Source of the DNA: Terriglobia bacterium
Lineage (GTDB): Bacteria > Acidobacteriota > Terriglobia > Bryobacterales > Bryobacteraceae
Direction: 5' to 3'
Length of the DNA stretch: 64,000 nt
Assembly: GCA_963832905.1 (NCBI GenBank)
Contig: CAWHVO010000002.1
Coordinates: forward strand, 506,547 to 570,546
The notes beneath the pieces were generated by a model, which had not been told where the DNA came from, did no database searches, and saw nothing but the letters and a program-made list of their open reading frames with translations. Both the position numbers and the translations under genes were made by a program. Within the stretch, counting starts at the first letter, position 1, and every line of letters begins with the position of its first letter. Shown one piece after another: positions 486 to 5,680 of the stretch.

Positions 486-1088
486 CTATCCTGCGTAGCC
501 GTTCTTCGCCGAACGTTTTCCCCCCGCCCGGTGTGCTTCATCCGACAGCGCATGCACGCCGCTCGCATCGATCCAGCGGTTGAAAAAATTGAACAGCGCG
601 CACGCCCCGATGGCGAAGTAGATCGCCTCGTCGTCCCAGCCCACGGCGTACAGCGGCGTCATGTCGTCCGCTGTGATGCGCGGCGAATCGCGGTTCACCT
701 TATCCACAAACCGGAACAGCGCCTTGTGCTTCTCATCCAGCGCGGAGCTTTCGAGATCCCGCAGCACACCCCACACCAGTTCCTCGCTCTCCAGCAGTTC
801 CGCCGCGACCGCGGCGTGCGACTTCAGTCAGAACGGACAGTCGTTTCGGTACGACGTGTACGCCGCAATCAACTCGCGGATGCCCGGGCTGAGCGGCGCC
901 GGTCCGCGCATGATCTCCTGCGTGAATCGCGCCAGATGCTCGGTAGCGTTCGGCAGAAACGCGAACAGGTGCCAGATCTGCGGATACTCGATGCCGCTCT
1001 TCTGCGCCATCGCGATCATGTCCGCATAACGGCCGGGCTTCGGATTGCGCTCCACGCCCGGCAGAAACATCGGCTTCATTTCGTTCAT
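486..1088 (-). CDS. AhpD-like / carboxymuconolactone-decarboxylase-family peroxidase-related protein, predicted selenoprotein (UGA 830-828 read as Sec)
   Basis: The tail of track ORF 828..1940 (MNEMKPMFLPG...AAYTSYRNDCPF) and ORF 486..776 are in the same frame, separated only by TGA: ...NDCPF-TGA-LKSHAAVAAELLESEELVWGVLRDLES... The TGA sits at the second Cys of the family C-x-x-C-x-x-x-H motif (C-P-F-U-L-K-S-H). ATG 1088-1086 lies 2 nt after the MFS stop. A SECIS-like hairpin follows. Confidence 0.75.
801..816 (-). promoter_or_regulatory. candidate bacterial SECIS hairpin (recoding signal)
   Basis: mRNA reads UGA-CUGAAGUCGCA-CGCCGC-GGUC-GCGGCG. A 6-bp GC stem starts 11 nt after the UGA. The apical loop GGUC is the same tetraloop as in the E. 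coli fdhF SECIS, with the loop G and U at +22/+23 from the U of UGA (fdhF: +23/+24). Confidence 0.65.
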
Positions 1089-1090
1089 CG

Positions 1091-2326
1091 TTAAACTCCC
1101 GCTGTCAGAAATTCCTCGCGCGCTGCCCGCACAGGATAGCGCGGCAGCGACGCCAGCACCGCCGCGCCGACGAACATCGCCGCTGCCAGACCCGCCAGCA
1201 CGATCGAATAGGAGTGCAGCCGATCGTATCCCCAGCCCATCAGCAAAGGTCCCAGCGCGCCCGCGAATGCATAGGCGGTGAACGTGTAGCCGTAGATTTC
1301 GGAGAACGCGCGCAGCCCGAAATAGCGCGACACCAGATACGGCATCACATCCGCCTCCGCGCCCATGCCGAGCCCGATCAGCCCCGCGCCCGCAAAGCCC
1401 ATGGTCACTGTGCGCGCCTGGCTCAACACAGCCACGCCGACGCCCGCGATCGCGAAAAAGATTCCCGTGACGCGCGATCCCGCGAATCGGTCCAGCAGCG
1501 CGCCTGTCAACAATCGTCCACCAAGCGTCAGCACGCCCATCATGCTCGCCGCCAGCGCCGCCGTTTCGCTGCCGATGCCGCGGTCGGTCAGCACCGGGAT
1601 CAGATGCGCCACCGATCCGTTCACGCTCACCGAAAACAGAAAGAATCCCGTCAGCAGCATCCAGAACACCGGCGTGCGCGCGGCTTCCATTCCGCGCATG
1701 CCTGCCTCGACCGGCGTCGCCTCCTGCGATCGCTGCACCGCATCCGGCGGCGTCTCTCGCAACCACAGCCCCGCGGGAATCAGTCCGAGGACGAAGACAC
1801 TCAGGCCGAGCACCAGATACGCCTCGCGCCATCCGTAGATTTCGATCAGCCGCGTCGCCAGCGGCGGAATGCCGATCGCGCCTGCGCCAACCCCCGCCAT
1901 CATGGTTGCCAGCGCAATACCGCGCCGCTTGTCGAACCACACCGAGATCACGCGCGCATAGCAGAGCTGCGTGGTTCCGTTGCCCACCACGCCGAGCAGC
2001 GCGTAGATCGCATAGAACTGCGCGAGCGACTTGACCGCCCCCAGCCCGCAGAACGCCGCGCCATAAATCGCCACACAGGGCAGCAGAACTTTGCGCGCGC
2101 CGATGCGATCCACGATGCGCCCGATTGCGGGCGAAAAAACCGCGACCATCAGCGCGGTCAGCGTGAATGCCAGCGAAATCTGCGTGCGGCTCCAGCCGAA
2201 CTCATCGCCCAGCGGCTTGATGAATACGCTGAACGCGAAGATCACCAGCGAGCCGAAGCTCACTGCAATCCCCATCACGGCTGTCATCACGATGACCCAC
2301 CCGCGCGTCACGCGGTTGGCAAACAT
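1091..2326 (-). CDS. MFS transporter
   Basis: 411 aa from ATG 2326 with about 12 hydrophobic segments and an MFS loop motif, GRIVDRIGARK. The rest of the 890-aa track ORF (to 3763) is antisense shadow of the TonB receptor. Confidence 0.9.
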   Translation of the reverse strand: MFANRVTRGWVIVMTAVMGIAVSFGSLVIFAFSVFIKPLGDEFGWSRTQISLAFTLTALMVAVFSPAIGRIVDRIGARKVLLPCVAIYGAAFCGLGAVKSLAQFYAIYALLGVVGNGTTQLCYARVISVWFDKRRGIALATMMAGVGAGAIGIPPLATRLIEIYGWREAYLVLGLSVFVLGLIPAGLWLRETPPDAVQRSQEATPVEAGMRGMEAARTPVFWMLLTGFFLFSVSVNGSVAHLIPVLTDRGIGSETAALAASMMGVLTLGGRLLTGALLDRFAGSRVTGIFFAIAGVGVAVLSQARTVTMGFAGAGLIGLGMGAEADVMPYLVSRYFGLRAFSEIYGYTFTAYAFAGALGPLLMGWGYDRLHSYSIVLAGLAAAMFVGAAVLASLPRYPVRAAREEFLTAGV

Positions 2327-2455: not shown

Positions 2456-5400
2456 ATGCTCAGGAAGCCTCTCGTCACTTTTCTGTTTATTTTTGCTTGC
2501 ATCCCTGCCTTTGCGCAGGATCCCATCGGAACCATCGAAGGAACCGTCACTGATCCTTCGTCTGCCGTTGTTCCCGGTGCCAAGGCGAACGTCAGAGACG
2601 CGCAGACCGGCCTCACACGCCAGGCTGTTAGTGCAGGTGACGGCATATTTCACATCTCGAATCTTCCCGTCGGCATCTATAACCTTTCCGTCAATGCGAA
2701 GGGTTTCGCACCGTTCGCAGTAACGGGCATTCGCGTTGACATCGGACAGGTAGTGAAATACCCGGTGCGGCTGGCGGTCGGAGGTGACCAAATCACAATA
2801 AACGTGCAGGACACGTTGCTCGACACCAGCCAGGCGATCGGCAGCACGATTCACGCCGCCGAAGCTAACGACCTTCCGCTCAACGGCCGCGACATCACGC
2901 AGCTTGGCCTTCTGCAACCAGGTGTCGCTCCCATGACACCGGGCCTCTCCACGGCCGGCGGCATCGCGCGCGCCGGTCAGGCCTTCGCCGTGAACGGCAC
3001 CACTCCCGAGCAGAACAACTATCTGCTTGATGGCGCCACTAATATCGACAGCGTCAATGGCGGCTACGCCATCCGCGTTCCGGTCGACGCCGTCGCCGAG
3101 TTCCGCATCCTCAGTCTCAATGCACCCGCCGAATACGGTCAAACCGCCGGTGCCACCACATCGGTGGTCACGAAATCCGGCTCCAACTCCATTCATGGCG
3201 ATGTCTACGATTTCTTCCGCAACAACTATCTCGACGCGCGGAACTTCTTCGCGCCGACCGCCGATCCGCTGCATCGCAACCAGTACGGCGCCACGCTCGG
3301 CGGGCCCCTCCGCAAAGACAAGGACTTCTTCTTCGTCTATTACGAAGGCCAGCGCGATGCCGCCGGCGTCACCCAGGGCGCCATCGTTCCCACGGCCGCG
3401 GAACATACCGGCAACTACGCCGGCCAGGCGCCGCTCATCAACGAATTCTCCGGGCAGCAGTTTCCCGGCAACATGATTCCGCCGTCGCTGATCAGCCCCG
3501 TTTCTGCCGCCGCCGCTAACCTTTATCCGCTGCCCAACGCGCCCAACCAGGTTTTCGAGACCACCCGGATCGGCATCAACAACTACGATCAGGGCGGCTT
3601 CCGGCTCGATCACTACTTCGGCGAAAAGGATCAGCTTTTCCTGCGCTACTCCGGATCGGGCACCCACGCCTTCGATCCGCTGCCCATCGCGGGCGCGGGC
3701 GTGCCCGGATTTCCTGTAACCGACGACCTCACAACCAACTCCTTCACCATCTCCAACGTTCACCTCACTTCGCCGCAGATCGTGCAGACGTTCCGCGCGT
3801 CATTTTTTCGGAACGTTTTCTTAAATGGCCAGGCGGTGAATCACACGCCGGGCAGCAGCCTCGGATTCGACTATCAGCCCACTCTCGGGCTCAACGAAGG
3901 CGTGCCCTATCTGATCGTCTCGGGCTATGCGTCGCTGGGCAATCCCATCGTCGGCCCGCAGGACACTTATCAGAACGACTTTCAGGGAGGGTACTCGATC
4001 GCCATGACGCGCGGCCGCCACAGCCTGAAATTCGGCGCCGAGCTCGACCGCCAGCAGATTAATGTAGACTTCGGCATTGCCACCAACGGCTTCTTTGTAT
4101 TCGCGCCGTTTCCCGCCAGCGATTCCTTTGCGAGCTTTCTGCTTGGCCAGTCCGTGCAATTTTTCCAGGGCGGCGGCCAGTTCGACCGCGGCCTGCGCAA
4201 GTGGATCGTCGGCAGCTACGCGCAGGATGAATGGCGCGTCACGCCGCACTTCACGCTCAATCTCGGGCTGCGCTGGGACGTCAACACGCCCTACACCGAA
4301 ATCCGCAACCGCCTGAACGTCTTTGAGCCGGGGCGCCAGTCGATCGTGTTTCCGGATGCGCCGGAAGGCCTTCTGTTCCCCGGCGATCCCGGTGTGCCCG
4401 CCGGTATCGCGCCGGTTAACTACAAGGAGTTCATGCCGCGCGTCGGCCTCGCATGGGATCCGTTCGGCAACGCGCAGACCATGATCCGCGCCGGCTACGG
4501 CATCTTCTATGACGGCTTCACCAACGGCACCGGAGGGCCTATTCAGGCCGCTATCAGCGCCTTGCCATATACGCAGGCCTATCAGCTTGCCGGACCCGGA
4601 TTCAACATCGCGAACCCGTACGGCAACGGCCCCCTGCCTTTCGGAGTGAACAATTTCGTCCAGCCCGCGACCGTGCTCACGGTTGCGACCGGCATGCGTC
4701 CGCCGTATTCGCAGAACTGGAATTTCACCATCGAGCGAGTGATCGCGAAGGACTACAAACTCGACATCAGCTACGTCGGCAACAAAGGCACGCACCTGCC
4801 GCGCTTCGTCGAAGCCAATCCGACTGTCTTCGCCAACAACAACCAGCGCGAATACTCGACCTGCAACGCGGCGGGGCTTTGCAACTACGGCTCCGTCGGT
4901 CTTCTCACGGACATCGCCAACTCAACCTACAACGCGCTGCAGGTCGAATTCTCCCGGCAGTTTTCGCACGGCCTGCGCTTTACCGCTTCGTACTGGTATT
5001 CGAAGAGCCTCGACGACATCTCGACCCTCAACGTCGCCGGCTCCGCGCCTACGCTGGTTGCCGGTGAAAACGATCTCGGGCAGAATCCATTCGATCTCGC
5101 CGCCGAGCATGGCCCGTCTCTCTTCGACGCCACCCATCGTTTTGTGTTCAGCGGGACATATGCGCTGCCGCAGTGGAAAGGCGCTTCGAAAGCCGCGGCG
5201 CTGTTAGTCAACGGCTGGCAGGCCAACGTCATCTCGACGCTTTCCACCGGCACGCCTTTCACGGTCTACGACAGCGCCGACGTGTCGCAGCAGGGAAGCG
5301 CGCCCGAGATCACCGGCTTCTATTCGAGCAAGCCGGACCTCATCTCGAACCCGAACCAGAACCAGCCGCACAACGCGAGCCAATGGATCACGCGCGCGCC

Positions 5401-5680
5401 GTTCCAGCAGCTCAACCCGGTGACGCAGGCCGGCCAGTTCGGCAACGAAGGACGCAACGCGGTGCGCGGACCCGGCATCGAAGACGTTGACCTGTCGATG
5501 TTCAAGATATTCAGCATCACAGAACGGACGCGCCTGCAGTTCCGCGCCGAGATTTTCAATCTCTTCAACCACGCGAACCTGGGCCTGCCGGAGAACGACC
5601 TCCAGTCGCCCGCCTTCGGACAGATACTGACAGCGGGTCCGGCGCGCCAACTGCAGCTGGCGATGAAGCTGATGTTCTGA
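2456..5680 (+). CDS. TonB-dependent receptor with N-terminal carboxypeptidase-regulatory-like domain
   Basis: 1074 aa. Signal peptide ends ...IPAFAQ. The N-terminus GTIEGTVTDPSSAVVPGAKANV...GIYNLSV is CarboxypepD_reg-like. There is a plug region (LNGRDITQL) and a long beta-barrel ending in the terminal aromatic ...LAMKLMF. Confidence 0.93.
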   Translation: MLRKPLVTFLFIFACIPAFAQDPIGTIEGTVTDPSSAVVPGAKANVRDAQTGLTRQAVSAGDGIFHISNLPVGIYNLSVNAKGFAPFAVTGIRVDIGQVVKYPVRLAVGGDQITINVQDTLLDTSQAIGSTIHAAEANDLPLNGRDITQLGLLQPGVAPMTPGLSTAGGIARAGQAFAVNGTTPEQNNYLLDGATNIDSVNGGYAIRVPVDAVAEFRILSLNAPAEYGQTAGATTSVVTKSGSNSIHGDVYDFFRNNYLDARNFFAPTADPLHRNQYGATLGGPLRKDKDFFFVYYEGQRDAAGVTQGAIVPTAAEHTGNYAGQAPLINEFSGQQFPGNMIPPSLISPVSAAAANLYPLPNAPNQVFETTRIGINNYDQGGFRLDHYFGEKDQLFLRYSGSGTHAFDPLPIAGAGVPGFPVTDDLTTNSFTISNVHLTSPQIVQTFRASFFRNVFLNGQAVNHTPGSSLGFDYQPTLGLNEGVPYLIVSGYASLGNPIVGPQDTYQNDFQGGYSIAMTRGRHSLKFGAELDRQQINVDFGIATNGFFVFAPFPASDSFASFLLGQSVQFFQGGGQFDRGLRKWIVGSYAQDEWRVTPHFTLNLGLRWDVNTPYTEIRNRLNVFEPGRQSIVFPDAPEGLLFPGDPGVPAGIAPVNYKEFMPRVGLAWDPFGNAQTMIRAGYGIFYDGFTNGTGGPIQAAISALPYTQAYQLAGPGFNIANPYGNGPLPFGVNNFVQPATVLTVATGMRPPYSQNWNFTIERVIAKDYKLDISYVGNKGTHLPRFVEANPTVFANNNQREYSTCNAAGLCNYGSVGLLTDIANSTYNALQVEFSRQFSHGLRFTASYWYSKSLDDISTLNVAGSAPTLVAGENDLGQNPFDLAAEHGPSLFDATHRFVFSGTYALPQWKGASKAAALLVNGWQANVISTLSTGTPFTVYDSADVSQQGSAPEITGFYSSKPDLISNPNQNQPHNASQWITRAPFQQLNPVTQAGQFGNEGRNAVRGPGIEDVDLSMFKIFSITERTRLQFRAEIFNLFNHANLGLPENDLQSPAFGQILTAGPARQLQLAMKLMF

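Follow-up and report, generated by a model that had tools for sequence, protein, structure and literature searches.

The 64,000-nucleotide window analysed here, a segment of contig CAWHVO010000002.1 (positions 506,547 to 570,546) from a Terriglobia bacterium, carries on its minus strand a gene (486..1088) that very probably encodes a 200-residue AhpD-like selenoprotein. The product is assigned to the TIGR01926 branch of the CMD superfamily, with selenocysteine (Sec) in place of the second, nucleophilic cysteine. The frame opens with ATG 1088-1086, closes with the stop codon TAG 488-486 and comprises 200 codons including Sec87. Translation of the minus-strand frame 1088..486 revealed a single in-frame TGA at 830-828 (feature 828..830), which is codon 87 of 200 and occupies the position of the second Cys of a C-x-x-C motif (YRNDCPF-TGA-LKSHAAVAAE). 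A mechanical list of open reading frames (ORFs) cuts the gene in two at this codon, and the public gene call for a short contig of identical sequence also ends there, yielding an 86-aa product. The original prediction had joined two ORF pieces, lying in one frame and split only by TGA 830-828, into a 200-aa product with U at residue 87. Our translation confirmed the coordinates as well as the residue number. The other features of the original prediction were likewise located where it had placed them, and the refuting conditions proposed with it, each run or approximated, did not overturn it.

Profile scoring of the 200-aa product was done with U written as C. The product scored 85.5 bits against TIGR01926 ("peroxidase-related enzyme"), above the curated cut-off of 81.8. 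The match connects residues 27-175 with profile positions 22-170 of 178 and hence runs across the TGA into both halves of the protein. The Pfam CMD domain (PF02627) was also recognized, with a score of 30.6 against a cut-off of 23. A database search returned 1730 homologs. The best 120 for the most part have a length of about 200 aa, and almost all of them span 96-99% of the product. The coverage of both halves by homologs, which had been proposed as a check of the original prediction, was therefore borne out by the profile match as well as by the full-length homologs. Two further families of the CMD superfamily with Sec-containing members, NF041238 (AhpD_rel_CFYUT) and NF053654 (YciW-related), are distant kin. 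The product belongs to neither of them, as its scores of 27.1 and 17.3 are far below the respective cut-offs of 175 and 310.

The active-site segment (816..875, minus strand) comprises Glu72 (875-873), Cys84 (839-837), Sec87 (830-828), and His91 (818-816). Together, E72, C84, U87, and H91 make up the AhpD signature Glu-x11-Cys-x-x-Cys(Sec)-x3-His with a spacing of 12/3/4. In protein alignment A1, E72 is invariant, and both C84 and H91 are conserved to at least 90%. The same spacing is found in the proton relay of Mycobacterium tuberculosis AhpD (Glu118, Cys130, Cys133, His137) and in PA0269 (Glu36, Cys48, Cys51, His55) (PMC3141380). Among proteins of known structure, the AhpD-like chains 2oyo (E = 1.3e-12) and 6k40 (Deinococcus radiodurans AhpD; E = 3.4e-11) as well as 2pfx, 3c1l, and 2prr are homologous to the product. 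The TGA column aligned with the second Cys of the CxxC motif in both 2oyo and 6k40, whose two cysteines correspond to C84 and U87. This places the TGA at the second Cys of the AhpD/CMD motif (NDCPF-U-LKSH), exactly as had been predicted. Compared with M. tuberculosis AhpD and with all five solved chains, the window product has Sec instead of the second Cys. It differs from the M. tuberculosis enzyme also in Phe86, which is located at the position of His132, and in that no AhpC partner gene adjoins the window gene.

To obtain an ortholog set, one genome per species was scanned, and the best 80 loci were combined with the window gene to give 81 sequences. The 80 loci encode products with 75-91% amino-acid identity to the window product. 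Nearly all of them are labelled as Bryobacterales, Bryobacteraceae, Solibacteraceae, or other metagenome-assembled genomes (MAGs) of Terriglobia/Acidobacteriota, and one is labelled as Chthoniobacterales. All 80 loci have TGA at codon 87, as does the window gene (81/81), and the pairwise nucleotide identity among these orthologs goes down to 69%. Eleven more TGA-type genes were found among metagenome loci fetched with a Cys-type query. In homologs of approximately 60-73% identity, the TGA column contains TGC or TGT, resulting in a C-x-F-C motif. Thus, Cys occupies the column in the more distant homologs and TGA in the closer ones, in agreement with what had been anticipated for a Sec codon.

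The 81 sequences also revealed how selection acts on the two sides of the TGA. The mean entropies at codon positions 1/2/3 are 0.38/0.21/1.23 bits upstream and 0.36/0.29/1.22 bits downstream of the TGA. For codons +11 to +17, which precede the internal GTG that a two-gene model needs as a start, the values are 0.66/0.29/1.02 bits. Because the same coding periodicity is observed on both sides of the TGA, including codons +11 to +17, a pseudogene and a pair of separate genes are excluded as readings of the locus.

The closest database homologs, all of them derived from JGI metagenomes, show Trp in the TGA column (CPFWLKSH). Such a residue occurs in 21 of the 120 best database homologs (P0001-P0012, P0014-P0017, P0022, P0023, P0030, P0047, and P0056), all from JGI and nearly all encoded on contigs of about 1 kb. 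The DNA underlying P0001 (locus L131:376-972), however, carries TGA, and translation with table 11 does not reproduce the P0001 protein. We conclude that the Trp residue is a translation artefact and that the Trp-bearing proteins represent further TGA orthologs. The artefact was probably caused by a code-4 model that the gene caller picked on short contigs.

In a neighbour-joining tree, 111 Sec-type tips fall into one clade that holds just four non-Sec tips. This topology suggests a single Cys-to-Sec change followed by rare reversions. Two proteins within the Sec clade deviate from the motif: P0018 has lost the first Cys and contains Cys at the second position (T-x-x-C; NNTQFC), and P0031 carries Glu in the Sec column (CIFE). 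They may be reversions or degenerate copies. The Sec-type gene appears to be fixed across the whole order Bryobacterales, whose members are abundant Acidobacteriota of soil and peat.

Downstream of the UGA, we found a hairpin that we regard as a candidate Sec insertion sequence (SECIS). The element (801..816, minus strand) consists of a 6-bp stem, CGCCGC/GCGGCG, and the loop GGUC (810-807) with the conserved tip G809-U808. Counted from the UGA, the stem begins 11 nt downstream, and the loop comprises nucleotides 18-21. The GC stem, the loop sequence, and the distance had all been described correctly beforehand, and the element was located at 816-801. Its consensus across the orthologs is CGCCGC-RGUY-GCGGCG. 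This 16-nt consensus occurs once in the window when both strands are considered, with 0.07 occurrences expected from shuffles. A scan for an in-frame TGA in a long open frame combined with a GU-loop hairpin returned codon 87 as the sole site in the window.

The hairpin is kept in 81/81 orthologous genes. In the 78 distinct sequences, 99.3% of the cells of the stem (nucleotides 12-17 with 27-22 after the UGA) are paired. The loop-closing pair 18:21 is A-U in 44, G-C in 36, and G-U in one of the 81 sequences but never A-C; the corresponding numbers for the distinct sequences are 42, 35, and 1. The basal pair 12:27 is C-G in 71, U-A in two, and U-G in one of the distinct sequences, with two C-G to U-A double changes. 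The observed covariation score was reached by none of 500 shuffles, and pairing was lost when the stem partner was slid. RNAalifold independently predicted the same 6-bp stem with a 4-nt loop. The tip of the hairpin is GU in 78 of the 81 sequences. The conservation of the hairpin in orthologs, another proposed check of the original prediction, was thereby confirmed, including covariation.

Synonymous variation in the 81 sequences is reduced at the same place. The synonymous entropy drops over codons -1 to +10, with Ala+5 encoded by GCC in 80/81, Ala+8 by GCG in 81/81, and Glu+10 by GAA in 76/81 sequences. Ala codons elsewhere in the gene reach 1.2-1.7 bits. Codon +7 (window 809-807; columns 31-33 of alignment A2), the source of the G-U at the tip of the hairpin, is Val (GUY) in Sec-type genes, with the exception of three that have Gly (GGU). 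In close Cys-type genes (54-96% identical to P0034), by contrast, codon +7 is mostly Ile (AUY). In the Cys-type genes, an almost identical peptide (SHAAIAAEL) is specified by variable Ala codons, and neither a conserved hairpin nor a GU loop is present. In the nearest Cys form, P0013 (73% identity), the stem is broken. From the difference between Val and Ile at codon +7 in the two types of gene, it therefore appears that the RNA element dictates an amino acid, that is, that it constrains the protein sequence at this codon.

The original prediction had likened the hairpin to the SECIS element of Escherichia coli fdhF, with the same loop sequence at almost the same distance. Comparison with the fdhF element of strain MG1655 (after UGA140) supported this likeness. 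Both have the apical loop GGUC, and the upper stem of the fdhF element also lies 11 nt after the UGA. The loop covers nucleotides 19-22 in fdhF and 18-21 in the window gene, and the G-U tip nucleotides 20-21 and 19-20, respectively. The two elements are not identical in all respects. RNAalifold predicted no conserved lower stem leading back to the UGA in the orthologs, a part that distinguishes the fdhF element, and about half of the orthologs have the loop AGUU instead of GGUC.

Several results speak against the assignment as a selenoprotein gene. The hairpin lacks the bulged U of the fdhF element, forming a perfect 6-bp G+C helix instead, and its folding energy does not indicate a higher stability than that of shuffled sequences (z = 0.64) in this G+C-rich DNA. 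Rfam gave no match in the whole window at the gathering threshold, a result of little weight as short bacterial SECIS hairpins may be unrepresented among its models, and at E ≤ 10 only unrelated weak matches and no SECIS were obtained in the region 300-1300. ARAGORN detected no tRNA-Sec in the window or in the 80 related loci with their flanks, and tblastn searches of the same sequences with the E. coli proteins revealed no selA, selB, or selD. A simple pattern scan of about 1.6 Mb, comprising the window and the loci, identified no further selenoprotein gene and returned off-frame, low-complexity ORFs only. Because the folding energy is uninformative in G+C-rich DNA, the support for the hairpin comes from its conservation and not from its stability.

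The decoding machinery was, however, traced in relatives. Solibacter usitatus has been listed as a Sec-decoding acidobacterium, and sequences of its SelA, its SelB, and an FdhA selenoprotein are given (Zhang et al., 2006, supplement; PMC1794560). With S. usitatus SelB as the query, we retrieved at least 120 full-length SelB orthologs of 75-100% identity that contain the SelB winged-helix domains. Several of these matches are named Candidatus Solibacter, Bryobacteraceae, or Sulfopaludibacter SbA4. The SelB of SbA4 is encoded on OMOG01000772.1 (assembly GCA_900290305.1). The contig OMOG01000026.1 of the same whole-genome shotgun project (prefix OMOG01; 'Peat soil MAG SbA4'), which is locus L010 of our set, carries the TGA gene. 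Thus, SelB and the TGA gene are shown to reside in one genome in the relative SbA4. For the organism of the window, we infer the same combination, and by analogy Sec would be inserted there in a SelB-dependent manner. About 0.8 kb from selB, the SbA4 locus L133:8667-11597 contains a 976-aa gene with Pfam matches to CarboxypepD_reg and a TonB-dependent receptor, for which no link to selenium is implied.

One of the 80 loci, L057, contains an unusual tRNA gene on the minus strand (L057:9809-9901), approximately 100 nt upstream of its TGA gene. In this 93-nt tRNA-Cys(GCA), both the variable arm and the D-stem are long, and the discriminator base is U; by manual reading, the acceptor and T stems show the normal 7/5 arrangement. 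It was found in this locus only; a relationship to the non-canonical tRNAs described from Acidobacteria (PMC5389517) is possible. A second candidate, a 94-nt 'tRNA-Pro(CGG)' called by ARAGORN at L079:12915-13008, was rejected as a false positive caused by a run of GGTTCGG-type repeats.

Three other explanations of the TGA were weighed against Sec insertion. The UGA might be recoded not, or not only, as Sec, with Cys being delivered by a tRNA(Sec)-like tRNA(Cys) together with a SelB-type factor, or with Trp or Cys being incorporated by near-cognate tRNAs; the hairpin would then act as a general recoding stimulator. We consider this improbable. In its favour, the base following the UGA is C in 64 of the 81 sequences, and C after UGA constitutes a weak termination context. 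The long-variable-arm tRNA-Cys(GCA) near the TGA gene of L057 could also be taken in favour of this explanation, but its anticodon is GCA rather than UCA, and it is confined to 1/80 loci. Allo-tRNAs have been reported in Acidobacteria and tRNA(Sec)-mimicking tRNA(Cys) opal suppressors in other phyla; the published selC* tRNAs, however, come from anaerobes of those other phyla and not from Acidobacteria (PMC5389517). Canonical SelB with winged-helix, SECIS-binding domains is abundant in the lineage, and the hairpin has the small, G-containing apical loop typical of bacterial SECIS elements (PMC1088965). Moreover, it would be pointless to keep a costly UGA plus a hairpin throughout a clade for the sake of Cys, given that TGC is only one mutation away.

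Even less probable is that the TGA is a real stop, leaving either a pseudogene or an 86-aa N-terminal gene followed by a 96-aa gene starting from GTG 776. The codon is handled as a stop in standard ORF finding and in one public gene call, and the window itself contains no Sec machinery. Against this stand the TGA in 81/81 orthologs of different species and the purifying selection that acts on a single frame before and after it. The selection extends over the 17 codons that separate the TGA from the GTG and contain the catalytic His91, and the TGA falls inside both the family domain and the active site. A covarying hairpin and suppressed synonymous change would, furthermore, be unexpected in a pseudogene. 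A genetic code in which TGA specifies Trp (table 4 or 25) has hardly any probability left. It could draw on the Trp residues in this column of the 21 JGI proteins, but the DNA of one of these proteins has TGA and does not yield that protein with table 11. TGA is also the commonest terminator in the window, where it ends 18 of the 33 long open frames; the organism therefore uses the standard genetic code. In addition, a catalytic residue, which is Cys in all other homologs, would be lost if Trp were inserted.

Insertion of Sec at codon 87 would follow the model of E. coli fdhF. A single transcript probably covers the gene and, upstream of it, the gene for a transporter of the major facilitator superfamily (MFS). 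When the ribosome reaches UGA87, the hairpin 11 nt downstream would present its apical G-U. A complex of SelB, GTP, and Sec-tRNA(Sec) would bind to this G-U and bring Sec to the A site, so that the UGA is not read as a stop. Judged from the family, the selenolate of the mature enzyme would attack a peroxide or a disulfide/sulfenic substrate. Through Cys84, the intermediate would then be resolved as a selenenyl-sulfide, and the enzyme would be recycled by a thiol reductant of the cell.

The MFS transporter gene (1091..2326, minus strand) lies upstream of the selenoprotein gene and encodes a 411-aa protein of the oxalate/formate-antiporter or SfMCT-like type. Its best family matches remained under the curated cut-offs (NF049980, 208.7 versus 320 bits; TIGR00890, 147 versus 374.85 bits), and the public gene call for it bears PF07690 (MFS_1). 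The stop codon TAA 1093-1091 leaves a gap of 2 nt to the ATG of the selenoprotein gene, the value given in the original prediction. Because of this short distance, the two genes are probably co-transcribed. The sequence GGGAG (1096..1100, minus strand), located 7 nt 5' of the ATG and within the end of the MFS gene, may serve as a Shine-Dalgarno element, as read from the sequence.

Of the 80 related loci, 38 have an MFS gene of this type next to the Sec gene. It is located upstream in L001, as in the window, and in 37 loci an approximately 50%-identical MFS gene lies directly downstream on the same strand (e.g., L004:10626-11798). The two genes are thus linked repeatedly, though not in every locus, and their order varies. 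A functional coupling of the selenoprotein and the transporter is possible. We regard it as unlikely, though, that the pair is a module of its own that depends on selenium, for instance to detoxify or process an organic acid or peroxide carried by the transporter, in place of a generic antioxidant function. A still more unusual possibility, hinted at by the tRNA-Cys of L057, is that some of these bacteria decode the UGA with a non-canonical tRNA. Two other genes flank the pair in the window. On the minus strand, a gene beginning about 150 nt downstream of the selenoprotein gene (1-330; MPMFSFTLVHKIEANAAQIAEE...) runs off the edge of the window and does not encode an MFS protein. On the plus strand, a divergent ORF of 1074 aa (2456-5680) starts about 130 bp from the MFS gene.

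AhpD-like selenoproteins are an established family, as stated in the original prediction. The C-x-x-U family was first reported in 2005 from the Sargasso Sea metagenome, with 27 sequences; according to the same study, what bacterial SECIS elements have in common is a small apical loop with a G in it (PMC1088965). 'AhpD-like 1' was later counted among the most abundant selenoproteins of the Global Ocean Sampling data, with 299 sequences (PMC2398784). Alkaliphilus metalliredigenes has an AhpD-like selenoprotein with the motif NDCGYULSSH (supplement of PMC1794560), and a 2026 review placed AhpD-like selenoproteins under TIGR01926 (PMC13188914). The window gene shares with this family (COG2128/TIGR01926) the domain, a C-x-x-U motif in which Sec occupies the second Cys position and x-x-S-H comes next, the hairpin past the UGA with G in a small apical loop, and the widespread occurrence of Cys homologs. 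It differs in forming a clade of its own in soil and peat Acidobacteriota (Bryobacterales, Solibacteraceae) and in its frequent location beside an MFS transporter gene. A literature search for selenoproteins in Solibacter, Bryobacter, and Acidobacteriota revealed nothing specific to the window gene or its clade. The kind of protein is therefore already known, and what is new is the member clade from soil Acidobacteriota.

The importance of the finding lies mainly in annotation; the chemistry of selenoproteins and the knowledge of Sec decoding remain unchanged. Standard gene callers cut the gene into an 86-aa fragment and an orphan ORF, and public protein collections hold Trp at the catalytic position. 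These errors contaminate family profiles as well as the functions inferred for a widespread soil lineage. The alignment of the 81 orthologs provides a compact, covariation-backed minimal bacterial SECIS element that could be used to train selenoprotein predictors. Finally, the gene identifies the Bryobacterales and the Solibacteraceae as lineages that use selenocysteine consistently, which bears on the selenium demand in peat and soil communities.

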